Below are positions 7,334-62,599 of a DNA stretch of 64,000 bases, in pieces. Location of the stretch: NCBI GenBank assembly GCA_046154185.1, contig JBJXGE010000003.1, positions 21,144 to 85,143 of the forward strand, read 5' to 3'. A program made the translations under genes and the position numbers. This DNA comes from Planctomycetota bacterium. Its GTDB lineage: Bacteria > Planctomycetota > UBA8108 > UBA1146 > JAJFFE01. Under the pieces are notes generated by a model. The model searched no databases. It was given only the letters and a program-made list of their open reading frames with translations, and was not told where the DNA came from. Each line of letters begins with the position of its first letter. The first letter of the stretch is position 1.

Positions 7334-7347
7334 CCCTGGGTTCATCG

Positions 7348-10750: not shown

Positions 10751-10915
10751 CCGGCGCGAATTTCGCCAGGGCGCGCTCGACGCGGCGGTGGACTTCCACC
10801 GCCGCCGGGCACGCCATTTGACGCTCGCTCGATTCCCCAGGTATCATCCATCGAGAGGTAGCGAGTGTTCGGTGCGGTGAACCGCCGAGCCGCTTGCTAG
10901 AGGGGGGATTGCCAG

Positions 10916-13480: not shown

Positions 13481-14061
13481 CTCAGCATCTTTCTGCTTTG
13501 AGGCCGGCGCGCTCGAGCGGGCTGACACTACCACGAAACTGCGCGAGCGCGAGCCACCAGCGTCACGTCCTCGCAAAGCGAACCCCGGCCGACACCGAAT
13601 CTTGACGGTCCTGTTTTGCGAAGTAGAAGAAGCTCGTCGCTTTCGATCGGAATTCTCCTCGGCAGCGGCGGCACGGCCTCCGGCCGGCTCGCCGATTCCG
13701 CAGGCAGGTAGCTAGGAATGTCGCTAGGAATGTAGCTCTCGGGCGGCCCCAGCCGACCGACAGCCGCCAAACACTGATCGCTCAAACTCAGTACCTGTAG
13801 TGCCAGCGAAGCACGATGGGCTCCACTTCCTTTGCAAAACTGAACGCGGCCACCGCCATGCACAAATTTCGTCCGGGGCTTGGCACGCCCGGGAACGGCG
13901 TCGAGTGCGACGGCGAGTGACGAGCGCGAGATCGGTGCGAGGTGCGGCGAAAGGATGTGCGTTGCGCGGGTCGAGCGCGCTCTCAGCTCGGCGCGCATTT
14001 CGCCAACGGAAAACGGGCTTGCGCCCGTTCCCGAATGGAAACTCTGGAAAGGACACAGCTC

Positions 14062-15045
14062 ATGCGCAGAATCGCGTTACTCCTGCTTTCTATTGCCGGC
14101 CTGATGACCGTTGGACTGTTCACGCGTGAGGCCGCTGCTCAGCTCGCGTACCCGAGTGGCGTCGAGGACTTCGAGTCACTCGTCGTCGGTGACAGTGTCG
14201 TCTCCATCGGTTGGATCGTCGTGAGCACGAGCCCGATGCCGAGCGACTTCGCTGTGATCGGCGCAACTCCTGGTTTCGCTTCCGCCACAGCAGTGCGCGT
14301 CGTCGACGTCGATTCCGGCGATGTGCAGAATCGTTTCTACAGTCCCGGCCTCCAGGCGCCCGTCGAATCAAATTACTCGTGGAGTTGGTATGTGAACTTT
14401 GAAACGCCGCCGCCGGGTGGTACTGCGGTCAAACCGCGGCTGACGATCCAGCACTTTGGAGTTGGATTCGTGAATTCCTGGGGGGTCGAGTTCGCGGACG
14501 ATGGCATGCGGTTGGTCGTCACCGGCAACGGCGGCCCGGCGGGTAGCGTGTTGCTGAACGGGCCGCCGGTCCTCGGGACCTGGCATCTGGTTGAGTTGTC
14601 GGTGGACTTCGATGCGGACACCGTGACCGCCGCGATCGATGGCGGCGTGCCCGCTTCGCTACCGATTGCGCTCACAGGTGATCCGACGCTCTTCCGCTTC
14701 TGTTATCGCGGTGAAGGCGTCGGCAACGTTGCGACTTTTCTCGTCGACCGGGTTTCGGTGGTCATCGATGAGGCGCCGAATTTCGTGCGCGGCGACTGCA
14801 ACAACGATGGCGGGAACGACATCGCGGATGCGGTGTTCGGTCTGAGCTTTCTGTTCAGCGCCGGTGCGGCCCCGGACTGCTCCGACGCGTGTGACGGAAA
14901 CGATGACGGCTCGCTCGACGTCGGGGACATGATTTCGATTCTTAGCGCGCTCTTCGGTGGCGGCCCACCGCTTCCCGCACCGAACTCATGTGGCCCGGAT
15001 CTAACTTCCGATTCTCTGACTTGCGATGCATTCAGTGGCTGTTAG
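14062..15045 (+). CDS. Secreted LamG/ConA-like jelly-roll protein with a C-terminal dockerin-like Cys-tail module
   Basis: AAGGA SD. Signal peptide MRRIALLLLSIAGLMTVGLFTREAAAQ. C-terminal FVRGDCNNDGGNDIADAVFGLSFLF...DGNDDGSLDVGDMISILSALFGGGPPLPAPNSCGPDLTSDSLTCDAFSGC, ending in a stop codon. Confidence 0.75.
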   Translation: MRRIALLLLSIAGLMTVGLFTREAAAQLAYPSGVEDFESLVVGDSVVSIGWIVVSTSPMPSDFAVIGATPGFASATAVRVVDVDSGDVQNRFYSPGLQAPVESNYSWSWYVNFETPPPGGTAVKPRLTIQHFGVGFVNSWGVEFADDGMRLVVTGNGGPAGSVLLNGPPVLGTWHLVELSVDFDADTVTAAIDGGVPASLPIALTGDPTLFRFCYRGEGVGNVATFLVDRVSVVIDEAPNFVRGDCNNDGGNDIADAVFGLSFLFSAGAAPDCSDACDGNDDGSLDVGDMISILSALFGGGPPLPAPNSCGPDLTSDSLTCDAFSGC

Positions 15046-15222
15046 CCCGTAGGACTCGCTCGGCAACTCGAAACCGGGGTGGGCCCACGAACTGCCCGCC
15101 CCGGTTCGCATGCCAGGGACCTGTGGACGTCCGTGTGAGGGAGTCGGGAGCAAATCGAGCCACCCGTTCCGTCCCGCAAGCGGGTGGCTCGATCGCAACC
15201 GTCAGAAGTCGTCGGCCGGTTG

Positions 15223-18200: not shown

Positions 18201-19485
18201 CGATATTTATCTGCGTCGCGGTGAGTGCGACGCCGCTCGCGCAAAAAACCGCGGCGCCGAGCACATCGGCCGACGTCGCGATCACGCGATTGATGGCCTG
18301 GCCGGCGGTCGAACCGATACCCCAGCGCGCGCTGGCGAAGCCCGCCGCGTCGGTGAAAACGGTGAACGTTTGCGCGCCAGTGGCCGCACCATCCGCATTC
18401 AGCCAGCCGTTATTGCGGTCGATACGAAACTCGACCAGTTTGCCGACGAACGGCGAGCCATCGGACTCCAATAGCCGCACGGTGATCGGCGCCGGCAGCA
18501 TCGACCGCACCGGTCCGGACTGCGCGTCGCCGGAGAACAGCGTGAGTGTGGGCACGCCGGGCGGCGGAATCACACGCGTGACGGTGCGCGACACGGTCAC
18601 GGAGTTGCCAAGCGCATCGGCGCCAACGATCTGCAAAAGCGTCGGTGTGCCGAGCGCGAGTGGCACGCTCGCGGCGAGGAAACTTCCGGTCGTGCCGAGG
18701 CCTTCGTACACAGTCGCGACCACGCCGTTGACCGTGACTGTCATAGGCAGCACGCCGCTCAAGAGATCGCTGATGGTCCCCATAACCGCGATGGTTTCGG
18801 TGAGGACTTGCTCGTCAGCGAACGGGTATTGGACCGACACGACCGGTGGCTGAGTATCCTGAATGATCATGATCTGCGCCGGTGCGCTCGCGAGTCCATT
18901 TGCATCGAGCGCCGTGACGTAGATGTTATTCACAGAGTTTTCAAGCAGCGGAATGCCCACGGCGTTGAAGCTCCCGCCGACAACCGGCGCCGTGATCACG
19001 CCAGCAGGCGAACTCGCGGCAACCGTCACAGCGCCGGCCGCTGCTCCGGAAACGGTGATGGTGAATTCGTCGGTGAACTGAAACAGCGGATTGAGCGTCG
19101 GCGCCGGCGGCGGCACGGGATCATCGGGACACGCTGAACCAGGGCCCACGCAATCGAGCGCATCGGCCGTGAGATCGATCCCGCACGAACCGAAAGGCGG
19201 AGGTGGCTGCGGCCCCGCCGAGAAGAGATAGCTGAGCAAGTAAATGGCATCGGCGATATCGAGCGCGCCGCTGTCGTTGGAATCGAGCGCATCGCGGCAG
19301 GTGAGTGGTCCGGCGCTGAACAAGTAACTCAGACCATGGATGGCGTCCGCGACGTTCAAACTTCCGTCGAGATTGGCATCGCCTCGCTTGAAGGTCCAGT
19401 CCCCGCGCGCCGCAGTTGGCAGCGCCGCGCACAGTAGCACAGCAATCAAAAGAGCAGCGAAAAGCGCACGCGTCGAGTGTCGCAT
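15223..19485 (-). CDS. Giant secreted protein (1420 aa) with an N-terminal dockerin-like Cys-tail module, multiple Ig-like/Big_2 domains and a Cys-rich region
   Basis: ATG at 19485 with AGGAGG SD 8 nt upstream. Signal peptide. The module directly follows (FKRGDANLDGSLNVADAIHGLSYLF...DSNDSGALDIADAIYLLSYLFSAGPQPPPPFGSCGIDLTADALDC). Big_2-like segment near the C-terminus. Confidence 0.8.
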   Translation of the reverse strand: MRHSTRALFAALLIAVLLCAALPTAARGDWTFKRGDANLDGSLNVADAIHGLSYLFSAGPLTCRDALDSNDSGALDIADAIYLLSYLFSAGPQPPPPFGSCGIDLTADALDCVGPGSACPDDPVPPPAPTLNPLFQFTDEFTITVSGAAAGAVTVAASSPAGVITAPVVGGSFNAVGIPLLENSVNNIYVTALDANGLASAPAQIMIIQDTQPPVVSVQYPFADEQVLTETIAVMGTISDLLSGVLPMTVTVNGVVATVYEGLGTTGSFLAASVPLALGTPTLLQIVGADALGNSVTVSRTVTRVIPPPGVPTLTLFSGDAQSGPVRSMLPAPITVRLLESDGSPFVGKLVEFRIDRNNGWLNADGAATGAQTFTVFTDAAGFASARWGIGSTAGQAINRVIATSADVLGAAVFCASGVALTATQINIGDGNNQFVEAGAPVPLPLRVWVSDGVNGVSDYAVVYQVVEGGGTINGLSSFPFLTMSSGHAEAVLVAGAQPGVNVVDVRLSGDMSKVATFTIYGIARDFDRPTSFHGAVLDNAQQPIGGATCSLTVGASTLLTTTSPDGQFEFSEVPSAGSGQLFIDGATATTAGSQSVAIGTFPSIGYLVVLVPNAENTLPQPILLPRLNPLNVQQFDGSQDVVLTVNGIDGLEVLVAAETEITLPNGTIVATGSGNSVPLSLNAVHHDNVPMPIPDGAAPPFAWTLQPAGAHFDPPLSIRYPNFSGLAPGSIAYFLSYNPINNRFEIVSAGTVDAEGAFINSDPGAGLTIAGWGCNCPPYAATGECCKYEPEPNGCGPADPPWAAGLVPECPYVFVWQVCFTPACDTHDICYGTCACGALTAKFACDGIFLLDLLGICAGQFTPGLPPFEVCSIQAAIYAAAVAVGGFGAFSSAQDEACRCEECGGLALGSGGGPPPPMYPDADEDILPDDWEIEVGLDPTDSADAMLDQDGDSLNNIQERLFGTLPFDEDSDDDGTTDGIELWATQPPPRVVLDETWQVVVNGQSAQIGTHGTYKVRNVSAPDQFGPSGPGSPPDFVSDDCVRAIATKTVGGVSYYATSSPFRIAQGQTIDVQGMTVSTDPPPIPESLKFSRLPGTPSYGIIEVGDTAQLELLGELADGSLADFSSDPCTTYRISNSAIATVSPTGLVAGLNPGFVLISGTNNGALASIVVRIIPAIPRTTIVGFTMLSSGAPLPGASISVVGTAFSAVSAASGQFQIVDVELTGTTLELLCSLVSGSETLQALVEVSSPVVGGYTDVGIINMGAGPAVLLTDATGSQGSAVSIDIVLDTDTALGGWSFGVCHDSAVIEITTAEAISLAGVLSGGMPADLTVVDVIPGDGVTMGVVVDFIGVDSLPPGAGYWILRAHYSILGVAGSTTDVCFCDTIGGGGAGPVATVVTGTSGTAIPTDKYCGTVTIVP

Positions 19486-19746
19486 CACAGGCCTCCTCCT
19501 TTTCGCAAAATCCATCGTCGCCCAATACACGCCATGCAGGCCTGCGAATCGTAGTCAGCGCAGCAAAAACCTACAAGTCAGCGGTCAAAAGCCCGCGGCA
19601 ACTGAGCCCCAATTAGCTCGGTCAATCCACGCAAGATCTTGCTGCCACTGGCCGCCAAGACGGCGTATTGCTGCCGCGCCGTCCGCCGTCGCACGCGAGG
19701 CGCCGCGGGCGGCGCGAGTTAAGGAGTCAGTGTCTTCGGCGTGATC

Positions 19747-19780
19747 CCGACCCAGGGCCGCCGTCATCGGCTGCCCTGGG
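19747..19780 (-). terminator. Stem-loop GACCCAGGGC-(14 nt)-GCCCTGGGTC downstream of the beta-propeller gene
   Basis: 10-bp perfect inverted repeat. No U-tract. Shares the CCCAGGG/CCCTGGG core with the hairpin at 7299-7333. Confidence 0.35.
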
Positions 19781-37560: not shown

Positions 37561-39999
37561 ATGCGCGTTCGCGTGCGAGGTCGCGGCTTTCGAGCGTGGA
37601 TCGCCCTCTTCGCCTTTTCGGCGACGCTTGCCGGTGCATGCGTTTTGACGCCCGCCGCAGCGCAAGCGCCGATTCGCTACGACGGGCACGCGGTGGTGCG
37701 GGTCGCGATCGCGAACGAAGCGGAACTCGCACAACTGCTCGCGCTCAATCTCGACATTTGGACCGATGCGATTGGCATTGGCCCGCTCGACGTGCGCGTC
37801 GCTCCGGACGAATGGCCGAGCCTTTGGACGAGCGGGCTTCCTTTCGAGCCGCGTATCGTCGATGTGCAAGCGCTCATCGATGCCGCGACGGCGAGCAGCG
37901 CCGCCGCCGGCGCGCCGATTGGCGGCGGTCCCTTCGGTGGCGCACCGCTTGGCGGCGTCTCGTGGTTCGCGGACTACAAGACCTACGACGAGGTGCTCGC
38001 GCAGCTCGTCGAACTCGCGGCGGCGCGACCGGATCTCGTGACGCTCATCGATGTCGGGGTGAGCGTCGAGGGCCGGTTGATTCGCGCGGTGCGCGTGACC
38101 GGCACGGCCGGCTCAAACAAACCCGGCTTCTATATCGAAGGTTGTCAGCACGCGCGCGAGTGGGTCGCGGTGATGGCGCCGGTCTATGCCGCCTGGGCGC
38201 TCGTCGAGTTCTACGACCTCGACCCCGAAATCCACGCGTTGATGGACAGCGTCGAGTTTTTTATCGTGCCGATCGTGAATCCGGACGGCTACGTTTATTC
38301 GCACGCAGTCGATCGACTGTGGCGAAAGAACCGGCGGGTTAACGGCGACGGAACAATCGGCGTCGACTTGAACCGCAACTGGTCCTACGAGTGGGGTGGC
38401 CCAGGGTCGAGCCCCGCGACTTCGAGTCCGGTCTATCACGGCACCGGACCGTTTTCGGAGCCGGAGTCGAGCGCGGCGCGCGACTTCGTTCTGGCGCGAC
38501 CGCAAATCGCTGCGTTCCTCGATGTGCACAGCTACTCGCAGTTATTGTTGCAACCGTTCGGATACACGGTCGCGCTGCCGCCCGATCAAGATTTTTATCA
38601 CCCGCTTGGCGCGGAGATCACGGCGGCGATCGGCAGCGTCCACGGCGCGACCTACTTGCATGGGCCGGGCGGCCTCATTCTGTACGTCGCGAGCGGCACG
38701 GCGCAGGACTGGGGTTACGGCGTCGCCAGCGCGGTCGCGATGACGATCGAATTGCGCGACACCGGCCAATTCGGATTTCTGCTGCCGGCCGATCAGATCT
38801 TGCCGACGTGCGAGGAAGTGTTCGCGGGCTTGCGCGTGTTGGGGGACACCATCTCTCGCCCGTTCGCCTTCAATTTTCCACAGGGTCTGCCGGCGCGCGC
38901 GGCGCCTGGGGCCACGACGATGTTCCCGGTCGACGTGCACGCGATCGGCGGCGCCACGCTTGCGGCTGGGTCGCCGCGCATCCATACGCGCAGCACCGGC
39001 GGCGGCGCGTTCGTCGAATCGCCGCTCGAGTTCACGGGCGGTACGTTGTACACGGCGACGCTGCCGGCCGCGCCGTGTGGAAGTTCGATCGAGTTTTACT
39101 TCACGGCGGCGAGCGCGACGGGCGGCAGCGCAAGCGGTCCGATCGATGCGCCCGGCGAGGTGTATGCGACGCCGGTCGAGCTCGAGCTTGTTGCCTTCAG
39201 CGATGACGGCGAGTCCGAGCTTGGCTACGTCGTGTCGGGCGACGCGATCGCGGGAGTGTGGAATCGCGGCGTGCCGGCTGGCGGCGGCGATCGCGGCGAT
39301 CCGCCGTTCGACGCCGATGGCAGTGGGCAGTGTTATCTCACCGACTTAGCGGATGGCGACACCGACGTGGACGGCGGCAGCACGATTCTCACGTCGCCGC
39401 TTTTCGACGCGACGGGCGGCAACGCGACGCTCAGCTATTACCGGTGGTACTCGAATGTCGCCGGCGGCACGCCGGAGCAAGACGTGTTCGTCGTGGAAAT
39501 CTCGAATGACGGCGGGGGAAGTTGGGTCGTGCTCGAGGTCGTCGGACCCGCCGGGGCCGAGGTCCAAGGCGGTTGGATTGCGCGCAGCTTCGCAATCGCA
39601 GACACGCTAGCGCCCACCGCGGCGATGCGCGTGCGATTCACCGCGTCAGACGTGGCGCCCGGTTCGGTCGTGGAGGCTGGGGTCGACGGAATCGTAGTTG
39701 GTGTTTACGGCTGCCTCGCTGTGCCTCCGAGTTTCATACGCGGAGACGCGAACGCCGACTCGCATTTCAACATCGCCGACGCCGTGTTCACGCTCGTGTA
39801 TGTGTTCGGGGGCAACGCGAGTTCGTGCCAGCTCGCGCTCGATGCAAACGATGACGAAGCCGTAAACATCGCCGATCCAATCTTCTTGCTCACCCAACTC
39901 TTCGCGGGCGGCGCACCGCCGCCCGGCCCGTACCCGGGCTGCGGCATTGACCCGACGCCCGGATCGCTCACCTGTGATGCGTACGCGCCGTGCCCGTGA
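37561..39999 (+). CDS. Secreted zinc carboxypeptidase (peptidase M14) with C-terminal dockerin-like Cys-tail module
   Basis: M14 signatures: HAREW (Zn His/Glu), NPDGY, DLNRNW, HSYSQ. Signal peptide MRVRVRGRGFRAWIALFAFSATLAGACVLTPAAAQA. C-terminal FIRGDANADSHFNIADAVFTLVYVF...DANDDEAVNIADPIFLLTQLFAGGAPPPGPYPGCGIDPTPGSLTCDAYAPCP, ending in a stop codon. Confidence 0.85.
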   Translation: MRVRVRGRGFRAWIALFAFSATLAGACVLTPAAAQAPIRYDGHAVVRVAIANEAELAQLLALNLDIWTDAIGIGPLDVRVAPDEWPSLWTSGLPFEPRIVDVQALIDAATASSAAAGAPIGGGPFGGAPLGGVSWFADYKTYDEVLAQLVELAAARPDLVTLIDVGVSVEGRLIRAVRVTGTAGSNKPGFYIEGCQHAREWVAVMAPVYAAWALVEFYDLDPEIHALMDSVEFFIVPIVNPDGYVYSHAVDRLWRKNRRVNGDGTIGVDLNRNWSYEWGGPGSSPATSSPVYHGTGPFSEPESSAARDFVLARPQIAAFLDVHSYSQLLLQPFGYTVALPPDQDFYHPLGAEITAAIGSVHGATYLHGPGGLILYVASGTAQDWGYGVASAVAMTIELRDTGQFGFLLPADQILPTCEEVFAGLRVLGDTISRPFAFNFPQGLPARAAPGATTMFPVDVHAIGGATLAAGSPRIHTRSTGGGAFVESPLEFTGGTLYTATLPAAPCGSSIEFYFTAASATGGSASGPIDAPGEVYATPVELELVAFSDDGESELGYVVSGDAIAGVWNRGVPAGGGDRGDPPFDADGSGQCYLTDLADGDTDVDGGSTILTSPLFDATGGNATLSYYRWYSNVAGGTPEQDVFVVEISNDGGGSWVVLEVVGPAGAEVQGGWIARSFAIADTLAPTAAMRVRFTASDVAPGSVVEAGVDGIVVGVYGCLAVPPSFIRGDANADSHFNIADAVFTLVYVFGGNASSCQLALDANDDEAVNIADPIFLLTQLFAGGAPPPGPYPGCGIDPTPGSLTCDAYAPCP

Positions 40000-42397: not shown

Positions 42398-44716
42398 ATG
42401 CGTGCACTCGTACGGAGATGCTGTGTTGGCTCGGCGGTTGTATTGCTGCACTCGCTTGTGATCGTCATCGCTGTGCTGTCGACCACATTGGCGAGCGGCC
42501 AATACGCAACGACTTTCGACGCGCTCTTGGGAGATGCTGACGGCGAAACTCTGGTAGGTCAGGACTCCTACTATAATCCTGTCCCAGCGACCAGCGTCCC
42601 AGCGCTCGTCTATACCTATGCCGGCAACGTTCTCGGCGTGCCGGTGAACCCCACTGGCGGCGACAAATTCGCGGCTGGTGTCGGACCAGGTGGAAGCGTA
42701 TTCATGCGCACACAGCGCGACCTGGCATTTGGCGCCGGCACCGGCATTTGGTCGATCTCCTACGATGTCTCGGTGTCATTCATTGGTACCTTGCCGACGG
42801 CTCAAAATGCCGGCAGCGTTTCCACGCAAACGTTCCCGGGCGACAAAACTTTTATCGCCCTCAGCACCTGGACTGATATCACTACGGCCGCGGCCTGGAA
42901 CGCAGACTACGTTTGGTTCAACGCGACGGGCACGCAGCTACAGGAAATCGTGCCAGACCCGGCTTTCCAAAACCTCGTCGCGAACCAGTGGTATCGTCGA
43001 ACAACAATATTTAGTCTCGACACTTACCAGATACTCGAGGTCAGAATCACCGATCTCACGACCGCCATCACGACGAGCTACTCGCCGCCGGATCGCTACC
43101 TGTTCGGCGGCACGGCCTTCGCGCCGCCGTGCGATGGTTACCGCATTTTTGCCGGTGCCGCAACTGTCGCGGGCAATGTCGTCGCGTATGACAATGTCGT
43201 GATCGAGCAGATCATTCCGCTCTGCGCACCCATTGCGAGCTTAGTCTGCAGCGTAGACTGCGGTGCCGGCACCGTCGCGTTGAGCTGGCCCGGTGGGGCC
43301 TACACTGCGATCGAGGTTGAACGCGACACCATCTTGATTTCCACGCTCCCCGGAGGCGCCACCGGATTCGTCGACAATCCTGGTGTTTCCGGTAGCTATT
43401 CGTATCTGGTGCGCGGCATCTGTGCAGGCGGACCGGCGCTTTCAGGTCCGGTTTGCAATGCAGAAATCGCGATCGGCGGCGTCCAAGAAAACATCATCTG
43501 GGCGGGCGAGTCGGCCGCTCAAATCGATAGCGTGGCAGCGCTTGATGCGGCGATGACTGCGGCCGGCCTCGCGCACACGGTAGTGGCCGATTTGGGCAAC
43601 CTACCGTGTGGCGCAACGCTCACGCCATCAAACCGCGTGTGGGGCGCCATGGGTAGCTTCCCCAGCAATCACCCGATTTCGGTGGCCGAAGGCATGTTGC
43701 TGCGAGACCACGTTTTGGCGGGTGGCCACGTTTACATGGAGGGTGGCGATATTTGGGGTTTCGATCCGGCCACCGCCTTCAATACGGTCGATGGGATCGC
43801 CTCTCCGGCGGTCGACGGCGGCGATGACTTCACCGCCATGGTCGGATCGAGCTACGATGACGCCCAGTTCGCGGGATTGAATGCTGCATACAACCAGGAC
43901 CAAGCGGGCAACGACTGGACCGATCAGATCGCCGCCACCGCGACTGACATGGCGGGACCGAACGCCGGCGTGGTTTGGAATCGTGACGTGGGCGGCGGAG
44001 TCGCGGGTTACGGCACGGGCGTTTTCCACGCCAGCGACCAGCCTTTTGGTCGGGTGCTCAACCAGTCGTGGGAGTTCGGCGGCTACGGCGGCGACCAAAA
44101 CGCGCTGATACTCGCGTATGACGATGCGCTCCGCCGAGTGGGATCGCCGAGCGACCTTACTTGTTCGCAAGTGGGGACCACGGGTTCGGTGGATCTCGCC
44201 TGGACCAACCCGCAGAACTACGACAGCGTCAACGTCTACGTCGACGGTCCGCTCTACACCACGCTTGGCCCGCAGGCGGCGGGTTCGGCGTCCGCAACAA
44301 TTTCCGGTCTGTCAGTCCCCGGAGCTCACACCATTTGCATCCAAGGTGTGGTCGCGGGCGAATTGTCGCGACAAGTCTGCTGCATGGTCACTTTGGTCGC
44401 CCCGCCGGTCGACCTGATCAAGGTCGCCGACATCAATGGCGACGGCGCCGTCAACGTCGCAGACCCGATTAACATCCTCTCCGAGTTGTTCCCACCCATG
44501 CCTGGCCCGTCAGGCGGGTTCATAACTCTGGCCGGATGCCCAGCGGGCTTCGACTGCAATGGCGACAACATGGTCAACATCGCCGACCCGATTTTCTTGC
44601 TCAGTTGGCTGTTCTCGATGGGGCCGCCGCCGCCGGCCTGGCTCGGCACCGTGCCAGCTTGCAACCCAGCGAGCCCGATCCTCGGCTGCTTGTTCCCGCC
44701 GACTTCCTGCGATTGA
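42398..44716 (+). CDS. Secreted large protein with FN3-like Cys-containing repeats and C-terminal dockerin-like Cys-tail module, hypothetical
   Basis: Signal/TM N-terminus. Two FN3-like segments. C-terminal INGDGAVNVADPINILSELF...DCNGDNMVNIADPIFLLSWLFSMGPPPPAWLGTVPACNPASPILGCLFPPTSCD, ending in a stop codon. This is the most divergent copy of the module. Confidence 0.7.
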   Translation: MRALVRRCCVGSAVVLLHSLVIVIAVLSTTLASGQYATTFDALLGDADGETLVGQDSYYNPVPATSVPALVYTYAGNVLGVPVNPTGGDKFAAGVGPGGSVFMRTQRDLAFGAGTGIWSISYDVSVSFIGTLPTAQNAGSVSTQTFPGDKTFIALSTWTDITTAAAWNADYVWFNATGTQLQEIVPDPAFQNLVANQWYRRTTIFSLDTYQILEVRITDLTTAITTSYSPPDRYLFGGTAFAPPCDGYRIFAGAATVAGNVVAYDNVVIEQIIPLCAPIASLVCSVDCGAGTVALSWPGGAYTAIEVERDTILISTLPGGATGFVDNPGVSGSYSYLVRGICAGGPALSGPVCNAEIAIGGVQENIIWAGESAAQIDSVAALDAAMTAAGLAHTVVADLGNLPCGATLTPSNRVWGAMGSFPSNHPISVAEGMLLRDHVLAGGHVYMEGGDIWGFDPATAFNTVDGIASPAVDGGDDFTAMVGSSYDDAQFAGLNAAYNQDQAGNDWTDQIAATATDMAGPNAGVVWNRDVGGGVAGYGTGVFHASDQPFGRVLNQSWEFGGYGGDQNALILAYDDALRRVGSPSDLTCSQVGTTGSVDLAWTNPQNYDSVNVYVDGPLYTTLGPQAAGSASATISGLSVPGAHTICIQGVVAGELSRQVCCMVTLVAPPVDLIKVADINGDGAVNVADPINILSELFPPMPGPSGGFITLAGCPAGFDCNGDNMVNIADPIFLLSWLFSMGPPPPAWLGTVPACNPASPILGCLFPPTSCD

Positions 44717-44732
44717 TGGGCGTCGACAAGTC

Positions 44733-44766
44733 GGGGCGGCTCCGTGCGGGAGCCGCCCCGTTTGCT
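44733..44766 (+). terminator. Rho-independent terminator: GGGGCGGCTCC-gtgcg-GGAGCCGCCCC followed by GTTTGCTTG
   Basis: Perfect 11-bp stem 17 nt after the stop at 44716, followed by a T-run. Confidence 0.6.
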
Positions 44767-52945: not shown

Positions 52946-53365
52946 CCGCTCGGCCTAGCGCATGCTCTTGGAGGGGCGAAGCGGAAGCGCCCCTCCAGGC
53001 GCTTTGAACCCGGAGTCGAATCAAGCTGAGTCATCGGTCACTTCTCGGGTCGCCTAGCGGTTTGCCGTTAAGCTGCGGGCGGCCGTCTGCGGCCGACCGA
53101 CAGCATCAACGGCTTGTTAGCCAGTGCTGCTATTGTTCCAGAGTAATCTCCGATCCGAGAAACTTCGAGAACCCGCGTGCCGCCGTCCTGACGGCCGTGT
53201 CGCGTGACGCCGTAGATGACATCGTCCCGGATTGTGGATACAGCTCACCGAAGCGAGTTAGAAGTTCTGGCAGGCAGTGCGCAATCTGCCCGAGTACCCT
53301 TCGAAGAAAGTCGCCGTCTCCTTCTCGGGCATTCGTTTCGACGACAGACGCGCACGAGTGCGGAA

Positions 53366-53719: not shown

Positions 53720-53893
53720 CTCGAATGCTCCTGTGCGCGGCGTTGTGGATGTGGTCTCAGTCCGGCGCTCTCGGCCGGCGTATCTCTTTAATCAAACTCT
53801 AGGGTGATCTGTGTCGAGCCCTGTATCAAGTCGAGAGGTTTCCGCGACTATTGGCGGTTTTTTGGTAATCACCAAATAGGCCCCGGTCTTTCA

Positions 53894-54793
53894 ATGCCCG
53901 TGTCGAAGTCGACATACTCGGCGTCCCAATCGGCGGTCGAACCGGGATCGATCGAAAACCTCACTATGCGCGCGAGCGAGCTAGCCGGATTCGTTGTCGA
54001 TGCCACGAGCAACGACGGCATCGGCGACGCCGAGATTTTCGCGAGCTGGTCGCCATTTCCGCGCGTGCCGGTGCCCAAGCCGGCAGATGGCGAGCCCACA
54101 GGATACGCACGATCGGCCGGTGACGGCAGTTTCGCACTCGCTCTACCGGATGAAGTCTCGTCGGTGCTGGTTCGCGCGTCTGGATACGTGGCCGCGAGAG
54201 TGCCGCTGCCTCTAGCGCTAGAAGCGGAGCTGCTGGAAATCGAGCTCGAGCCCGAGTCCATAATCCGCGGCCGGGTAGTCGATGCCGCGCACGTGCCGGT
54301 TGCCGGCGCGGCGCTGCGGCTAGTCGCGCGCGACGTCGAGCACGACTCGGCGTTTGCAATTACCTGTTCCACCGCCACAGATGGCAGTTTCGAGCTGCGC
54401 GGCGTCGCACGCGGGCGACACGCGCTTGCGGTCGATCAACGCGATTACGCCGAGCGAGTCGTTGATCTGGAAATCTCTGGCGATCACGACATCGGCGTAG
54501 TCATGCTCGCGCCCGCCATCCTGCTCGTCGGCGAGGTCCGTGCATCGAGCACCAGGACCTCAGGCACAATCACATTGCGCGGCGGCCCACGAGTGCTTCG
54601 AGCATATGTCGACGACAGCGGCCATTTCGAGTTTCCGCGGCTAGGTTTCGGCGACTATGTGCTCGATTACCACCGCGGGCGCTCGCAGGTGCCTATCGAG
54701 CGCAACCTCGTCGTAACCGCCGGCCCGATCCAGAGAATCGAGCTGGCCGTCGATTACCCGGATCTCGGCGTCGAAGTTCGGGTTGTTCGATAG
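53894..54793 (+). CDS. Carboxypeptidase-regulatory-like (CarboxypepD_reg) repeat protein, hypothetical
   Basis: Three repeats of the IRGRVVD..G.PV.GA.L.......T..DGSF.L pattern. No signal peptide recognised. Start uncertain (ATG 53894; track 53804). Confidence 0.5.
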   Translation: MPVSKSTYSASQSAVEPGSIENLTMRASELAGFVVDATSNDGIGDAEIFASWSPFPRVPVPKPADGEPTGYARSAGDGSFALALPDEVSSVLVRASGYVAARVPLPLALEAELLEIELEPESIIRGRVVDAAHVPVAGAALRLVARDVEHDSAFAITCSTATDGSFELRGVARGRHALAVDQRDYAERVVDLEISGDHDIGVVMLAPAILLVGEVRASSTRTSGTITLRGGPRVLRAYVDDSGHFEFPRLGFGDYVLDYHRGRSQVPIERNLVVTAGPIQRIELAVDYPDLGVEVRVVR

Positions 54794-54826
54794 CCGGGTT
54801 GAAGAGCGACGATCGGAGCGTGCGCA

Positions 54827-55320
54827 ATGACAAACTCACCGATCGACAAGGAACCGCCACGAGCCGGTGAGACAGGACCTGATCGTGCGAAGGACCGGGA
54901 GGGCCAGCACGACGAGGTCGATACGACGCGAACTGCGCCCAAACCCTCCGGCCCGCCATTCATGCCCGCCATTCCGACTCAAATCGGTCCGTATCGCATT
55001 CTCGAGAAAATCGGCGAAGGCGGAATGGGAGTCGTCTATTTGGCGGAGGAGCGCGGTGAAATCCGGCGACGCGTTGCCCTGAAGGTCATGCTTCCTGGAA
55101 TGTCGAACCGAAAAGTCATGGCGCGGTTCGCGAGCGAGCGTCAGACGCTCGCCATGATGAGTCATCCCAATGTTGCGAGAGTCTTCAACGCCGGATCGAC
55201 CGATGAAGGCCTTCCCTACTTCGTCATGGAGTATGTGGGTGGGCTCGCGCTCACGGCATATTGCAGCCTGAACCGACTTGACACCCGCGAACGACTCGCG
55301 CTCGTGAGCGATCACGATTC
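54827..55320 (+). pseudogene. 3'-truncated Ser/Thr protein kinase (N-lobe only, about 160 aa)
   Basis: Intact ATG with GGAG SD. Gly-loop and Lys ([20 protein letters not shown]...VALKV), hinge ([12 protein letters not shown]). Homology stops before the catalytic HRDLKPxN loop, exactly at the inverted repeat at 55305. The track ORF reads through into the opposite-strand gene. Confidence 0.7.
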
Positions 55321-55345
55321 TGCATGGCAGAATCGTGATCGCTCA
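55305..55345. terminator. Perfect 19-bp inverted repeat TGAGCGATCACGATTCTGC-atg-GCAGAATCGTGATCGCTCA followed by TTT; bidirectional terminator-like hairpin at the kinase breakpoint
   Basis: Read from the sequence. Lies 5 nt from the stop (55351-55353) of the convergent minus-strand gene. Confidence 0.7.
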
Positions 55346-55350
55346 TTTGG

Positions 55351-56454
55351 TCACGGGCACGGCGGAAAGGCGTCGCAGGTCAGCGCGCCGCTGGTGGGGT
55401 CCGCGCCGCACGCGCTCGGAGGCGGCGGCAGCGGCGCCCCGGCGACGAACAGCGCCGACAGCACCGAGACGGCATCCGCAATGTTGACACTCTCGTCGTC
55501 GTTGGCGTCGGCAGCTTGGGCGCATGGTAGGAATCCCATGCTGAACAGCCCGCTCAAGATGCTGATCGCATCGGCGATGTTGAATGTGCCGTCCGCGTTG
55601 GCGTCCCCGCGGCGGAACTCGTCTTGTACCGGGCCGGCTGTGAATGCGCCGCCCCAGACGAACAGCCCGCAATCGTAGTTGTCATCTGTGCTGTCTGCGA
55701 CTGCAAACTTAAGCGTGTTTGCGCCGGGCACGACTTGAGCCGTTGCGCTGAGATATCCCATGACGCCGAAGTAGTCCGGTGCGAGCGGATAGGCGTCGAG
55801 AACGAAATCCGGCGGCACGAAGGTGAAATCGCTCGACATCGCAATCACCGGGTTGCCATCAATCTTGAAGAGTCGTTGTTCGCCGTTGGCGAACACTGCG
55901 GCCACGTCGGGATAGGGCGACATGCCAAAACCGTACTCCTGGCTGCCATAGGCGGCGAGCAGCGAAATCTCTCCGGCGCTTGCCGAGTTGAACTCGATCA
56001 CCAGGCTCGAGGCATCGCCGGTGCTGGTGCTGAATCCAAACTCGCTGAGTAGCGCATCGAGATCGGCGTCGCCGGGTAGACCGAGCGAGCGGCCTGGAAA
56101 CGGGAAGTAACCGGGGAGCGTCGGCTGGATGTCGACGGCTCCGCCTGAGGTCAGCAACAAACCGGGCGGCTCGCCGGCGAAATATGTATCTCCCGGTGTA
56201 TACACTCCCGCACCGATCAGTGCGCCGGTGTACGTCACCGAAGTAATACTTATTCCGGGCGCGCTCACGAAGGCGAGTGTGAGCGCGAGATCGGTCGGCG
56301 TTGCTGTGGGAAGCGTCGTTACTGAAACGACGGGTTGCGCAGGCGCTGTGGAGACGAGTACGAGTCCCATTGCAAGCGCGAGCCCAAGACTTATAAGCCC
56401 CCGCCAACCGGCTGTGCGGCGTGCGCAGCACTCGAACTTTGTGAAGGCAAACAT
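55351..56454 (-). CDS. Secreted beta-rich protein with C-terminal dockerin-like Cys-tail module
   Basis: Signal peptide [42 protein letters not shown]-terminal [25 protein letters not shown]...[52 protein letters not shown], ending in a stop codon. Confidence 0.75.
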
Positions 56455-57193
56455 GGTTTCACCCCTTTCACGTCACTCCTAGGAATTTAGGCGGCAAGTC
56501 TACACCGAGTCACGCTCGTCGACGCCGGCTAAGTCGCCGCGCCGCCCCAATGGCGCGTCACGGCTCGGCTCGCTGTTCTCCGGTCAACGCCAACCCTCAC
56601 GTTGACTTCGATTTGTGCGTGTCTAGAGAGATTCTCTGTCAGAACGTCGTGCGTCGCTGCCTAGGATTGATCGGGACTCTCGGCGCATCTCGAGAGGGAG
56701 GCGATCATGATTCGACGCCTTCCATGAGTAGGCTCCGCCGCCAAGGCCAACGTGCTGGCCGGCAGAACAACGATGTCGTCACGTTGGTCGACTTGGTTGC
56801 AACGATACGATTCGCTGCTTGAGTTTTTTTGCCGTGAAGCAGGAACTCGCGATACCGTCAACCTGGAAACCGTTGGAGATCGGCGACTTTCTGGAGGCCG
56901 CCTGGAAACGCTTCACTCCGCCAACCGTTCAGGCTCCAGTGCATCCCTTCCTCAATGACAACGACGCTCGCATCTTTTTTTCCTTCGCTGCGGATCTGGA
57001 ACAGCGTTACTGCGTAGAGAAATGGTTGAGCGCCTGACGAAGTGCAGAGCCTTTGATTGTCATCCGGTCGCGTCGGCAACTTTCGCCGCTTTGATGTCAT
57101 TCCCGCGGCGCGATGTATTTATGTTGACTCAGTGCATCGGCACATCGAGACTTCGAATTCTCTGGGCTCGCAATGGGAATCGAGGGGAAATTC

Positions 57194-60100
57194 ATGCGCC
57201 GTATGCCATCACGGTTCGGGCTCTTGTCGGTCATTTTGATCGCGCTGAATGTGGTGGGATTATTTTGGATTCGCGATGCGCTATTGCATGCGCACCGGCC
57301 TCGCTTTCGCGTCTTGGCAGCTTCACCCGCGCGACAAGTCGATGACGCAGATCGATTCGAATTGCGCTTCGACGCGCCGGTCGCGCGACCGTCGGAGATC
57401 GGCGAGCGTCCTGCGCGCGCGCTGTTCGAGATCGAGCCGGAGCCGGCCGGCCACTGGCGGTGGGCGGAAGCCGATCGGCTCGAGTACCTGCTCGAGAATC
57501 GCCTCCCGCTTGGGCGCGAGTATGTCATTCGGCCAGCCGCGCATCTCGAAGCGGAAACAGGCCGCATTCTTGTTGGCACCTCCGAGTTTCGTTTCCGCAC
57601 GAGCGCGCTCGAGTTGCGGTCGTGCGAAGTGCGGTCGTCGGATCACGTGTACGTGCGACTGGAGCTGCGATTCAACCAGCTCGTCGATCCAGTGGCGCTC
57701 CTACGCCACCTCGAGGTCTACGACGGCGGTGACATATCGGGCGCGAACGTGCGCCATCATAAAGGCAAGATCGAAATCCACTCCCTCACACAAGCGCCGG
57801 CGCTCGACATCGTCGTACGCGTGAACCGTCCGCAATCGCATCGCCTCGTCGTGAAAGTGCTCCGCGACCTAACCGGCCATGGCGCACACCTCGGACTCGT
57901 CGAGACCAGCGTGCAAACTCTCGATGTGCTGCGCGATTTCAGGTTGGAAAACGCCTACGTGCCGACGCCCGGTGCCGACGATGCGGTGGAGGTGAGACTC
58001 CAATTTTCGGCGTTCTTCAGCGAAAAAGTCGACCCGCCCACTGTTGAAGTGCGTCCTCAAGTCGCCGATCTCCGCGTGCGCCGAAGCGGATCCGAACTCT
58101 GTCTCACGGGCGCATTCCAGTGCGGCGCGCGTTACACCGCAATCGTTGATCGCAACGCCGTGTCGGCGGACGGCCGACCGCTCGGTCGAGAACAGACCAT
58201 TGCGTTCAACATTCCTGACCGGGCACCCACGGTGGATCTCGCGGTGCGGCACGGCATCTTGATGCCGACCGGCAATCTCTCGCTCGATCTGCGACTCGTC
58301 AATGTCGCCGCGCTCGGGCTCGAGGCCTGGCGTCTCTACGAGAACAATCTCGTCGCGCATCTGCAAGGCAACGCGCGCGACGAGACTTCGCGGCAGGTCA
58401 TGCATCGAACGATTGCGCTCGGTCTCCAACGCAATGTGCCAAGCACGGTCGCGATCGACTTGCGTCAGTTGCTCGGCGAAGTGCCGACCGGAGTGTATGC
58501 ACTGACGGCGCGCGCGAGGAATCGCCATTGGGCGAGGGACGATGCGGTCGTCGCCGTGACGGACATCGCGCTGACGACGAAGCGCGAACGCGACGGCTAC
58601 TTGGTCTGGGCCACATCGCTCGCGACCGCCGCGCCGATCGCGAACGCGACGATCTCCGCACTCACCTATACCAACCAAGTGATCGCGACTGCGACGACGG
58701 CCGCCGACGGCGTCGCTCGGCTGCGCGTGCCAAAGAACTCCGCGGACGACCACGTGTGGTTGATCGCGGCGCGTCTCGCGGAGGATCTCAGCTTCATTCA
58801 ACCGGACCGCCGGCCCTGGGTTTCCGACGCGGTCGAGCAGTCCGGTCGTTCCTCGCCGACGGCTTACGATGTTGCGCTCTTCACGGAACGCGGCGTTTAC
58901 CGCCCGGGCGATGTCATCCATCTCAGTGGGATCGTCCGCGAACCCGACGGCGCGCTGCCGCCCGCGCTGCCGTTGACGATCCGCGTGTTGCGTCCGGACG
59001 GCAAGGCCGCGCACGAATTGCCAGTCGATGCCAGGCCCGACCAACAAGGGTTTTTCACGATCGCCATTCCGACGACGACCGACTCGCGCACCGGACCCTA
59101 CCGTTTCGTTGCGAGTGTGCGCGGCGCCGAGGCGGCGCTCGGCGAAACTTCGGCGCTCGTCGAGGCCTTTGTGACAGTGCGCATCGAACTCGACGCCGCG
59201 ATGTCGCAAGAAAAATACTGCTACGGCGAAGGCCCGCCGACGCTCGCGGTCGCTGGTCGCTACTTATTTGGTCAACCGGCTGCCGATCTCCAGCTCGCCG
59301 TGCCTGGCACCTACGCGTGGCGAAGGTATGAATCGCGGCGTTTCCCCGAGTATCAGTTCGACGATGCGACGCGTTGCGCGCACGGCCAATTGACAACGAT
59401 CGAGACGCGCCTCGACAAGGATGGCGCTGCCACCGTCGCGTTGTCGCTGCCGCCGCAACTCGCGGCCGGCGTGTGGCAAGCTTCGCTCACTGCAACGGTG
59501 ACGGAGGCCGGCGGGCGCTCGGTGTCACGCCATTGCGTGACGACGATCGATACCGCCGAATATCACATCGGCCTGCGCATTCCCAAACACACGTTCGCGC
59601 CCGTTGGCTTGCCGATCGACATTCCTTGGGTCGTTGTGACTTCAAACGATGCGCCCGCCGAGTCGACGAAGTTGGCTTTCGAGTTGACGCGCGTCGAGTT
59701 CGAGTCTGTGCTCGAGGAAGTACAACGCAAACTGAAATGGAAATCGGTCGAGCGATTGGTGCCGATCCAAGAGTTTGAGTTCGCTCAATCCGCGTCGGGA
59801 TCGATCTCCATCGCCTGTCCGTCCGCTGGTTACTATCGCCTCACAGCGGTCGAACAGCGCACGGGTCAACGCGCGCGCGTCGAGTTTTATGCTGCGAGTC
59901 AAAGTCACGACATACAGAGCTTTTCGCTGGCAGAACCGGAACGGCTCGAGATCTTGTGCGATCAAGAGCGATATCGTCCGGGCGAGCTGGCGAACATCGT
60001 CGTGCGGGCGCCGAGTGCGGGGACGATGCTGTTGACGATCGAGTCCGATCACGTCGTCGAGCATCGCGTAGTCACGATGACAACGAACACGGCGACCGTT

Positions 60101-62599
60101 TGCATGCCGGTGGACACGGCTCTTCGCGGCAGCGCGTTCATCAGTGCGACGGTCGTCCGAGCCGTCGATCCCAAGCAAGGAAGTTGGCTACCGCATCGAA
60201 GTCGCGGAATGGCGCGATTGCGAATCGATCACAGCGACGCGCGGCCGGAGCTGGTGATTCGTGCGCCGAGCCGCGTCGAACCCGGCGCGCGCATTCGGGT
60301 GGAAGTCGAGGCTCCGGCGGCCAAATCATCGACGCGCGCGGCGGTTGTGCAGCTGTGGGCGGTCGACGAAGGAATCCTGCTGACGACAGACTATCGCACG
60401 CCGGATCCTGGCGCGCATTTCTTTGCGCCGCGCAAATCCGAGATCGCGTCGGCCGACCTGTTCAGTGAATTGCTACCGGATCATCTTCGGCCCGAGAGCA
60501 TGGCGCGAATCGGTGCGGATCGCGGGGCTGCGGAGACGTTGCGGCGCGGTACCGGCAACGACCGCCAACGCCGCGAGTCTGCCGTGATTTGGTGTGAGCT
60601 CGCGACTCTCGACGCCGAGGGCTGCGCCGCCTTCGATCTCGAGTTGCCGAACATGACTGGCCGCCTGCGCGTCATGGCCGTGTTCGTCGATCAGGACACG
60701 TACGCATCCGCCGAGCACGACGTCACGCTGAGCGCGCCACTCCTTGTCGAAGCGAGTTGGCCGCGCTATCTGGTGACCGGAGATTCCTTTCAAGCGCCGG
60801 TGAAGCTTTTCAATTCGACGGACTCCGTGCTCGAAGCTGAACTAGAGTTCGACTTCACAGGTCCGCTCGAGATCAAGGTACCGACATCGGCTCGACGGGT
60901 CCGCGTCGCACCCAACGAGCCGGCCGTTGTTTGGCTCGACGCGCGGGCCGTCGGCATTGGACCCGCGACCGTGCGAGTTCGGGCGGTCGCGGAAGCAAAC
61001 GCAACGCATCCCGAGTTTGTCGCCGTCGCCGAGACGGACTTGCCGGTGCGAAGCGCTGCAGTCTTGCATAGCGAAGTTGAGTTGCTGCGACTCCGCGCCG
61101 GCGAGTCGCGGCGATTTGCGGCTTCGAGCGCGTTTCTACCCGCGGGTTCAGGGCGCGTGACGCTTTCCATCAGCACGGAGCCACAAGTCGAACTGTTGCC
61201 GGCGATCACGCAGCTGCTCGACTACCCGTATGGCTGTCTCGAGCAGACGACGAGCCGCTTGCTTGCGATTTTGCACGCGCCGAAGCTGCTCGATCGCGCT
61301 TTGCCAGGCGATGCCCGTGTTGATTCGGCCGGGAAAAAGATCGAGTCGGGGATTGATCGGCTGTGGTCTATGCAAACGCGAGACGGTGGGCTCGGCTATT
61401 GGCCCGGCGATAACAATTCGCATCTGTGGGGGACGGCGTATGCGGCGGAGTTTCTCGCGCGCGCGAGCCACGAGCAGTTCACGATCGAGCCGCGCTTTCT
61501 CGACGACTTGCTCAAATACCTGAAGCTCGAACTCGACAGACGCAATGACAACGACGCCGACGTCGTCGATGCGAACCTGCGTGCGCATCTGTGCTACGTC
61601 CTCGCCGCATTCGACATGCCGCCCGTCGCGTGGCTGGAACGGCTCGCCGAGCAGGTGGCCGAACTCGATATCGCCGGGCGCGCACACCTTGCGGGCGCAT
61701 TCGCGGCGAGCGGCCGCGCCGATCGCGCCATCGCGATTTTGCCAACTGGGACGATCAACACGGTCGTCGGAACGACAACGAGCGGCCGCATTACTTCGCA
61801 AGTGCAACAAGAGGCGGCGTTGCTGCACGTGTTGCTCGACATCGATGTTCAGCATGTCTGGATCCCGCGACTCGTCGAACGGCTCTATGCGGCGCGCAAG
61901 AACGGCTGGTGGGGGACGACACTCGCGACTGCGACGGCGATGGCGGCGCTCGCGCGTTACCAGTTGTCTACTCCACGCATTGCGAGCGAGTTTACCGGCG
62001 AAGTTGTGGCGCGCGGCGGACGCACCGAGCGCTTTGATCATCGCGCGGCGGCGCACTTGGGCTTCGACTTCAACGACTTGCCACTTGAACTCAAGTCGGC
62101 GGGAAGTGGCACGCTTTACGTCGTCGCAGCTATTGAAGGGGATGGGACCCCGGAGCTCGCGGCGCCGTTCGACCGCAACTTTGCGGTGCGCCGGCATTGG
62201 CGCGCGCGCAATGGCGCAGTCATCGATCCCGGGAAACTCCGCATTGGCGACCTCGTTGACGTCGAGATTGAAGTCAAGGCGACGGCCCGACCGGATCTTC
62301 GCGGCGTCGACAACATCGCAATTGTCGATCTACTGCCGGCCGGGCTCGAAGTCGTGAACCCGCGTCTAGCGAGTTCCGGGATGGCCACGCACTCGGTAGC
62401 GCGCGCTGATTGCGTCGAGTTCCTCGAAGATCGTGTGGTCATCTTCGCTTCCGAGGTCGGCGCGAGTTCGACGTTTCGCTATGCGTTACGCGCCACCGCG
62501 GTGGGCTCGTTCGCAGTGCCGCTAGTGACGGCTTCGTGCATGTACGATCCGGTCATCGCGTCGGCGCACGGCGCCGGTCGCGTGGAGGTTGCACCATGA
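57194..62599 (+). CDS. yfhM: Bacterial alpha-2-macroglobulin family protein (YfhM/ECAM-like), membrane-anchored
   Basis: About 1800 aa. MG domains. Thioester motif LDYPYGCLEQTTSRLLAI (CLEQ). Start at ATG 57194 with GAGGGGA SD (track 57173). Stop overlaps the pbpC start as ATGA. Confidence 0.9.
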   Translation: MRRMPSRFGLLSVILIALNVVGLFWIRDALLHAHRPRFRVLAASPARQVDDADRFELRFDAPVARPSEIGERPARALFEIEPEPAGHWRWAEADRLEYLLENRLPLGREYVIRPAAHLEAETGRILVGTSEFRFRTSALELRSCEVRSSDHVYVRLELRFNQLVDPVALLRHLEVYDGGDISGANVRHHKGKIEIHSLTQAPALDIVVRVNRPQSHRLVVKVLRDLTGHGAHLGLVETSVQTLDVLRDFRLENAYVPTPGADDAVEVRLQFSAFFSEKVDPPTVEVRPQVADLRVRRSGSELCLTGAFQCGARYTAIVDRNAVSADGRPLGREQTIAFNIPDRAPTVDLAVRHGILMPTGNLSLDLRLVNVAALGLEAWRLYENNLVAHLQGNARDETSRQVMHRTIALGLQRNVPSTVAIDLRQLLGEVPTGVYALTARARNRHWARDDAVVAVTDIALTTKRERDGYLVWATSLATAAPIANATISALTYTNQVIATATTAADGVARLRVPKNSADDHVWLIAARLAEDLSFIQPDRRPWVSDAVEQSGRSSPTAYDVALFTERGVYRPGDVIHLSGIVREPDGALPPALPLTIRVLRPDGKAAHELPVDARPDQQGFFTIAIPTTTDSRTGPYRFVASVRGAEAALGETSALVEAFVTVRIELDAAMSQEKYCYGEGPPTLAVAGRYLFGQPAADLQLAVPGTYAWRRYESRRFPEYQFDDATRCAHGQLTTIETRLDKDGAATVALSLPPQLAAGVWQASLTATVTEAGGRSVSRHCVTTIDTAEYHIGLRIPKHTFAPVGLPIDIPWVVVTSNDAPAESTKLAFELTRVEFESVLEEVQRKLKWKSVERLVPIQEFEFAQSASGSISIACPSAGYYRLTAVEQRTGQRARVEFYAASQSHDIQSFSLAEPERLEILCDQERYRPGELANIVVRAPSAGTMLLTIESDHVVEHRVVTMTTNTATVCMPVDTALRGSAFISATVVRAVDPKQGSWLPHRSRGMARLRIDHSDARPELVIRAPSRVEPGARIRVEVEAPAAKSSTRAAVVQLWAVDEGILLTTDYRTPDPGAHFFAPRKSEIASADLFSELLPDHLRPESMARIGADRGAAETLRRGTGNDRQRRESAVIWCELATLDAEGCAAFDLELPNMTGRLRVMAVFVDQDTYASAEHDVTLSAPLLVEASWPRYLVTGDSFQAPVKLFNSTDSVLEAELEFDFTGPLEIKVPTSARRVRVAPNEPAVVWLDARAVGIGPATVRVRAVAEANATHPEFVAVAETDLPVRSAAVLHSEVELLRLRAGESRRFAASSAFLPAGSGRVTLSISTEPQVELLPAITQLLDYPYGCLEQTTSRLLAILHAPKLLDRALPGDARVDSAGKKIESGIDRLWSMQTRDGGLGYWPGDNNSHLWGTAYAAEFLARASHEQFTIEPRFLDDLLKYLKLELDRRNDNDADVVDANLRAHLCYVLAAFDMPPVAWLERLAEQVAELDIAGRAHLAGAFAASGRADRAIAILPTGTINTVVGTTTSGRITSQVQQEAALLHVLLDIDVQHVWIPRLVERLYAARKNGWWGTTLATATAMAALARYQLSTPRIASEFTGEVVARGGRTERFDHRAAAHLGFDFNDLPLELKSAGSGTLYVVAAIEGDGTPELAAPFDRNFAVRRHWRARNGAVIDPGKLRIGDLVDVEIEVKATARPDLRGVDNIAIVDLLPAGLEVVNPRLASSGMATHSVARADCVEFLEDRVVIFASEVGASSTFRYALRATAVGSFAVPLVTASCMYDPVIASAHGAGRVEVAP

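Follow-up and report, generated by a model that had tools for sequence, protein, structure and literature searches.

In a 64-kb stretch of a Planctomycetota metagenome-assembled genome (MAG), hereafter the window, we identified an open reading frame (ORF) at position 54827 that carries the N-terminal lobe of a serine/threonine kinase and loses all resemblance to kinases 1 to 2 nt before the foot of a perfect 19-bp inverted repeat. Judged by its sequence, this ORF is a kinase fragment and not a kinase. The locus is probably best explained as a pseudogene remnant that was joined, by deletion or replacement, to a terminator hairpin common to two convergent transcription units. The features on which this reading rests are as follows.

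53804 to 54793, + strand: upstream gene with CarboxypepD_reg-like domains (Pfam PF13620, E = 1.8e-17; ORF list)
54815 to 54818, + strand: GGAG, a Shine-Dalgarno-like motif 8 nt upstream of the ATG at 54827 (read from the sequence)
54827 to 55303, + strand: Ser/Thr kinase remnant with a 55-aa leader, N-lobe, hinge, and alphaD, ending at L159 (Pfam, alignment, family hidden Markov model [HMM], PDB)
55304 to 55678, + strand: read-through tail (aa 160 to 283) with no kinase homology, crossing the hairpin and then running antisense to the neighboring gene (ORF list, Pfam and HMM coverage)
55305 to 55323, no strand: left arm of the perfect inverted repeat, TGAGCGATCACGATTCTGC
55324 to 55326, no strand: loop of 3 nt, ATG
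55327 to 55345, no strand: right arm, GCAGAATCGTGATCGCTCA; the local fold of the hairpin is -35.2 kcal/mol as RNA
55346 to 55350, + strand: TTTGG spacer, giving the hairpin a short T run on its + strand side
55351 to 56454, - strand: intact convergent choice-of-anchor L gene with a dockerin-like C-terminal module (MFN0056996.1; NCBIfam NF038133, E = 1.3e-15)

To characterize the kinase-like ORF, we compared it with protein families, structures, and homologous sequences. The first-pass annotation of this DNA had credited the gene with a proper start and ribosome-binding site, and the ATG at 54827 with GGAG 8 nt upstream bears this out. The upstream gene stops 34 nt before this start, and the two are probably cotranscribed. 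The Pfam kinase model (PF00069, Pkinase) matched only over positions 1 to 90 of its 263 (E = 7.8e-10; 39 bits against a cutoff of 31.7), while NCBIfam kinase models and PDB kinase structures aligned to query residue 168 at most. In an alignment with 13 of the best homologues, the Gly-rich loop GEGGMG (residues 63 to 68), K86, and E104 fall at invariant columns, and the remnant thus carries the GxGxxG loop, the VAIK lysine, and the alphaC glutamate by which a Hanks-type N-lobe is recognized. It lacks the catalytic loop HRDLKxxN, the DFG and APE motifs, and the remainder of the C-lobe (approximately profile positions 91 to 263). The N-lobe also matched positions 491 to 600 of the 612 in NCBIfam NF047741 (MAD6, a methylation-associated defence kinase; E = 5e-18), far below the cutoff of that model. 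We set aside an identity as a MAD6 defence kinase, regarding the match as generic N-lobe similarity that is no evidence for a defence system.

Similarity to the 13 homologues stops after ...TRERLAL, with the codon for L159 at 55301 to 55303, where the family sequence would go on as F..VC.AVQHAHQKGIIHRDLKP. A family HMM of 120 homologues gave the remnant 217.6 bits; past L159, the remnant agreed with it only at A166 and Q168, which we judged to be within chance. Residual kinase coding in the left arm and loop, whether in frame (the same A166 and Q168) or shifted ('FCMAE' against 'VCxAV'), was rejected on the same grounds. The end of homology at 55303 thus lies 1 to 2 nt before the stem foot. 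The first-pass annotation had carried kinase homology through LALVSDHD and had taken the next 41 nt to be the palindrome. The kinase part does end near the stem, but VSDHD is already the translation of the left arm (V160 is the codon at 55304 to 55306), and the placement of the palindrome after them was wrong. Truncation at the palindrome holds in the sense that homology is lost there, but no in-frame stop codon occurs at the hairpin. A TGA does occur at 55305, but in another frame, and the ORF continues to 55678, reaching 283 aa in total. The truncation of the kinase gene is a loss of homology, not a stop codon.

The rest of the catalytic domain was not recovered anywhere in the window. When four homologues reaching into the C-lobe served as tblastn queries, only 54974 to 55333 of the 64 kb matched. 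Using hmmsearch with a 318-position family profile against all six frames (filters off, E up to 10), we matched only 54923 to 55336. A frameshifted C-lobe downstream had been named as the finding that would speak against a kinase remnant; there is none in any frame of the 64-kb window, and the reading as a remnant is supported by this absence. Displacement of the C-lobe by the gene at 55351 to 56454, which had been offered as an alternative, gained no support, with no C-lobe in the 8.6 kb to the right, an ordinary composition in that gene (GC3 = 0.726), and a tetranucleotide correlation of r = 0.979 from one side of the junction to the other. Because there is no C-lobe within the window, a simple insertion of this gene into an intact kinase is likewise unsupported.

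Hanks-type Ser/Thr kinases are abundant in Planctomycetota, and truncated pseudogenes are flagged by NCBI as incomplete, missing the C terminus. In a database of 5.8 billion proteins, the best homologue of the kinase fragment had 66% identity. The same database includes the neighboring protein at 100% identity but has none for the kinase ORF itself, from which we conclude that NCBI lists no product there, the ORF having been either flagged as a pseudogene or left uncalled. Nor was the fragment recently copied in part from an annotated paralogue, since nothing exceeds 66% identity to it. Among 58 N-lobe columns with at least 90% conservation, the remnant departs from the consensus at 8, compared with a mean of 1.5 (standard deviation of 1.4, maximum of 8) for the 120 homologues, a count that is biased toward the homologues because they define the consensus themselves. 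Six of the eight departing residues never occur in the 120 homologues. The N-lobe has a GC3 of 0.67, compared to 0.69 to 0.785 in the other genes measured, and its ORF is free of internal stops and frameshifts. The departures are suggestive, without being proof, of relaxed constraint, and it is the missing catalytic half, not decay, that points to a loss of kinase function. With its clear N-terminal match, absent catalytic half, and lack of a listed protein product, the locus resembles truncated Hanks-type kinase pseudogenes. In contrast to these, its breakpoint lies 1 to 2 nt from the base of a 19-bp stem, and its ORF reads on without a stop; most truncated remnants end at frameshifts, insertion sequence (IS) elements, or contig ends.

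The perfect 19-bp inverted repeat reported in the first-pass annotation was confirmed. Its arms are complementary at 19 of 19 positions and enclose the ATG loop, for a hairpin of 41 nt in total (55305 to 55345). Pairing includes no G-T pair or mismatch, the GC content of the stem is 53%, and the arms start with 5'-TG and finish with CA-3'. A stem of this length far exceeds chance expectation. When we scanned all 64 kb for perfect stems with loops of 0 to 12 nt, it was the longest in the window, with a runner-up of 12 bp, and the maxima in 30 first-order Markov shuffles that served as a control were 9 to 14 bp. Among 46-nt local folds of the window, none is more stable than the hairpin, at -35.2 kcal/mol as RNA (-34 to -35 kcal/mol across estimates). 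The RNA fold around it reaches approximately -44 kcal/mol over 76 nt (z = -6.9 for the + strand and -8.5 for the - strand), and the hairpin alone folds as DNA at -23.7 kcal/mol (z = -9.2). It occupies the 47-nt gap that separates the kinase-derived part from the convergent choice-of-anchor L gene. Directly 3' of the right arm is TTTGG (55346 to 55350), followed by the stop codon of the convergent gene (55351 to 55353), in agreement with the earlier description of a TTT after the palindrome and a gene end 5 nt on. Covariance models from Rfam yielded no match at E ≤ 1 on either strand of 54600 to 57300. Two sets of shorter repeats near the junction were considered and rejected. A 5-nt direct repeat, CGCTC (55299 to 55303 and 55340 to 55344), and short inverted matches that link the junction with 56260 to 56290 both derive from Leu-Ala-Leu / Val-Ser codons that the sites have in common, and neither exceeds the level of chance (22 chance pairs in 2.2 kb).

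Several other genes in the window, many of them bearing the dockerin-like module described below, are followed by clean hairpins of -28 to -35 kcal/mol that lie 15 to 40 nt after their stops. Strong, clean stem-loops shortly past stop codons occupy the following positions, the last five of which are examples of these 3' hairpins.

7305 to 7342
10782 to 10805
15071 to 15107
15155 to 15193
19740 to 19780
44732 to 44760
52969 to 52997

For two of them, the transcribed strand continues with TTTGC; the hairpin at 55305 to 55345 is followed by TTTGG on the + strand. Such poststop stem-loops with very short T runs look like the terminator style of this genome, and by energy and position the hairpin beside the kinase remnant would group with these putative terminators. 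It is longer, perfect, and less GC-rich (53%) compared with the GC-rich stems of 10 to 13 bp in the other 3' hairpins, and for its longer stem and 53% GC it may have a different origin. The convergent pair of genes at 13942 to 15045 and 15223 to 19530 has one 3' hairpin per gene.

The first-pass annotation had proposed that the hairpin serves as a shared terminator, and this proposal held up in part. Stability and placement match those of the other 3' hairpins, but the T run is only three nucleotides long, and a scan with a terminator consensus did not call the hairpin at 55305 to 55345. As a stem-loop it has the makings of an intrinsic terminator (19-bp stem, 3-nt loop, -34 to -35 kcal/mol, 5 nt past a stop codon). 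A U-tract, defined as at least 5 T in 8 nt, is lacking on both sides, with TTTGG on the + strand and CGAGCG on the - strand. Overall, the arrangement resembles intrinsic terminators between convergent genes in its strong stem-loop, its 47-nt gap, its position 5 nt past a stop, and TTTG on one strand. It differs from them in the 3-nt T run, the absence of an A run opposite, and the perfect 19-bp stem, and it is a putative terminator only.

The stop codon of the neighboring gene lies 5 nt from the hairpin. Its product is 100% identical to MFN0056996.1 (P0121; 'MAG: choice-of-anchor L domain-containing protein [Planctomycetota bacterium]'), encoded on a contig of 92,132 bp. The dockerin-like module at its C terminus, approximately 90 aa in length, occurs in seven ORFs of the window, with 42 to 58% identity to the copy in the 55351 to 56454 gene. 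The copies are located as follows.

14779 to 15042, + strand
19392 to 19150, - strand
20072 to 19851, - strand
39733 to 39996, + strand
40482 to 40240, - strand
44402 to 44701, + strand
55650 to 55354, - strand

The module is C-terminal in most of these ORFs and apparently N-terminal in 15223 to 19530 (- strand), and the copy in the 55351 to 56454 gene has a Cys-containing tail. Database matches indicate that the module is joined to many unrelated domains in Planctomycetota, and it may be a sorting or anchoring domain. In a search for close relatives of the locus, matches to the neighboring protein other than its self-match covered little beyond the C-terminal module, and the upstream gene returned only partial matches of 35 to 42% identity in JGI metagenomes. 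None of the searched collections held an orthologous locus of the kinase remnant, with kinase relatives no closer than 66% identity. The ancestral state, an intact kinase next to the hairpin, is therefore unobserved. On the far side of the choice-of-anchor L gene, a 718-nt gap of lower GC (56455 to 57172; 0.54 to 0.56 versus about 0.63) with no sigma-70-like promoter match and no Rfam hit separates it from a divergent ORF at 57173 to 62599. That ORF encodes 1808 aa that appear alpha-2-macroglobulin-like on reading, with no NCBIfam family match.

We hypothesize that the ORF at 54827 is the dead 5' end of a Planctomycetota-type Ser/Thr kinase gene in which only codons 1 to 159 are kinase-derived. 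These codons encode the leader, the N-lobe and hinge, and the first part of the C-lobe helices. At least 170 codons of the catalytic domain would have been lost together with the stop codon through a deletion or replacement that joined codon 159/160 straight to the base of the stem-loop. We infer both this event and its mechanism, as well as a role for the stem-loop in ending the transcripts of both convergent units, as a terminator or 3'-end hairpin. On the + strand, the hairpin and TTTGG would end the transcript of the upstream gene and kinase remnant before it ran antisense into the neighbor, and on the - strand, the hairpin would act 5 nt past the stop of the neighbor. Of what had been proposed in the first pass, a deletion scar at a shared terminator thus survives as the best-supported reading, while its version by insertion or displacement is unsupported in the window.

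Two reasons, one or both of which may apply, could account for a breakpoint at the stem foot. First, longer deletions would destroy the terminator or the neighboring gene and so would be selected against. Second, hairpins in single-stranded DNA would stall replication, making slippage or a template switch more likely at the stem base. Deletions associated with palindromes, as well as quasipalindrome template switching, were reportedly described by Ripley in 1982 and by Glickman and Ripley in 1984. The locus resembles such cases in that a rearrangement endpoint falls at a hairpin foot and the arms are identical, as they would be after correction or inverted copying. It differs in that described short template switches involve segments much shorter than the one missing here, and the searched collections provided no orthologous sequence for the locus. 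The 19/19 pairing may be recent, or it may have been held perfect through template switching from arm to arm. Template switching maintains perfect inverted repeats (Lavi et al. 2018, PMC5941160), and a model of hairpin-stalled replication with slippage or template switching is reviewed in the same work (PMC5941160).

A related account, to which we assign some limited chance, is that the rearrangement itself made the hairpin. A short template switch, in replication or in the repair of a break, would have copied approximately 19 nt of nearby sequence in inverted orientation and resumed at a distant site, with the deletion arising in the same event and the terminator role coming later. The breakpoint 1 to 2 nt from the stem base is compatible with such an origin, and 19/19 pairing with no G-T pair or mismatch, along with a GC content (53%) that is low compared with the other 3' hairpins, is what a young inverted duplication would look like. 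Perfect inverted repeats of similar size are documented as products of short template switches (Loytynoja & Goldman 2017, PMC5453318; PMC10710096; see also PMC5941160). However, documented short switches return near their point of departure, and with at least 0.5 kb, and probably a longer segment, missing here, a second long-range jump would be needed. Furthermore, neither arm is demonstrably the original. Read in frame, the left arm agrees with the kinase consensus at A166 and Q168 alone, no more than chance would give, and the searched collections provided no outgroup sequence. In its boldest form, which we also consider an outside chance, the palindrome would have been born de novo at the junction by template switching and been at once a working terminator that shields the convergent gene, combining the 'birth of a terminator' with the death of a gene in one step; alternatively, it would be the smallest kind of mobile inverted-repeat element, truncating genes through adjacent deletion.

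Alternatively, the 41-nt palindrome could be a minimal mobile element or its footprint, consisting of two terminal inverted repeats separated by next to nothing, with the kinase cut by insertion and a transposase-mediated adjacent deletion, which we regard as improbable. Its perfect arms resemble terminal repeats with TG...CA ends, and the breakpoint falls exactly at the outer end of one arm. We found no target-site duplication, the flanks (...GCGCTCG and TTTGGTC...) being without a common direct repeat, and such a lack is expected after an adjacent deletion. In these respects, as well as in its location between convergent genes, the locus is comparable to repetitive extragenic palindromes (REP/BIME), miniature inverted-repeat elements (MITEs), and IS-mediated adjacent deletions. 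Unlike those elements, the palindrome is single-copy in all sequence searched, and kinase-like sequence does not resume past it, as it would after a simple insertion. At 41 nt, it is also shorter than known MITEs.

The copy number follows from searches for the arm, which the first-pass annotation had suggested as a check for a REP- or MITE-like element and which gave that idea no support. There were no further copies in the 64-kb window with up to 3 mismatches allowed, no matches in viral contigs, and only chance partial matches in plasmids. GTDB species representatives (596 Gb) contained three single-arm matches, all in coding sequence and none palindromic, and we judged them to be chance, being about the number estimated for a 19-mer in 596 Gb. 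Two of the three belong to a single conserved, homologous coding stretch present in two Gemmatimonadaceae MAGs (L002, 3800 to 3818; L003, 65 to 83), where the arm occurs once, in frame, and not as a palindrome (...MSDHDSAA...), an identity that we attribute to chance; the third is in Streptococcus uberis.

It is also conceivable that chimeric or fold-back reads produced the junction as an artefact of the assembly or library, in which case an intact kinase and the choice-of-anchor L gene would exist at separate loci. The source is a MAG with one contig on record, the break falls on a palindrome, which is a classic chimera site, and the junction is known from one genome only. Nevertheless, an artefact is unlikely, and we see little chance of it. 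Tetranucleotide composition correlates across the junction at r = 0.979, inside the range of 0.955 to 0.987 for left-hand segments, and GC is equal on both sides. With no compositional break in tetranucleotide and GC3 tests, we rejected a cross-genome chimera. In addition, the C-terminal module family occurs in genes on either side, and the hairpin occupies the kind of position that 3' hairpins take at other genes here. Because the left arm is not kinase-like, a chimeric join would fall at 55304/55305, where there is no common k-mer, and a graph assembler would presumably need spanning reads to make it.

Finally, we consider it very improbable that the ORF encodes a functional short or neofunctionalized protein, an N-lobe-only pseudokinase to which a new tail of 123 aa has been added, with translation or transcript length regulated by the hairpin: the 283-aa frame is intact, has a Shine-Dalgarno-like motif, and keeps the N-lobe motifs (Gly-rich loop, K86, and E104), but the tail is simply a real gene read in antisense, the N-lobe shows erosion at conserved positions, NCBI lists no product, an isolated kinase N-lobe is not a stable catalytic unit, and no homologue among those examined has the same architecture, with matches covering at most 89% of a 180-aa query and ending at the N-lobe.

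The feature is most likely ordinary, consisting of a truncated pseudogene beside a terminator hairpin in a poorly sampled lineage. Counts of signaling genes in this Planctomycetota MAG should enter the ORF as a fragment of a kinase pseudogene and not as a kinase, and no protein should be annotated for the 283-aa read-through ORF. The base-exact match between a gene breakpoint and the foot of a perfect hairpin is its one mildly instructive point. If confirmed in reads and in a sister genome, the locus would offer a clean natural case in which hairpin-associated deletion or template switching has shaped a 3' end, in a phylum that has received little study.

Many of the best-scoring kinase homologues (including P0027, P0049, P0017, and P0002) are themselves short, with homology lost in or just after the HAHQKGIIHRD region. 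The contigs that carry these four range from 97 kb to 2.7 Mb, and at least two of the cases resemble +1 frameshifts. Short homologues of this kind probably reflect sequencing or assembly frameshifts in long-read MAGs, or else a spot of recurrent pseudogenization.
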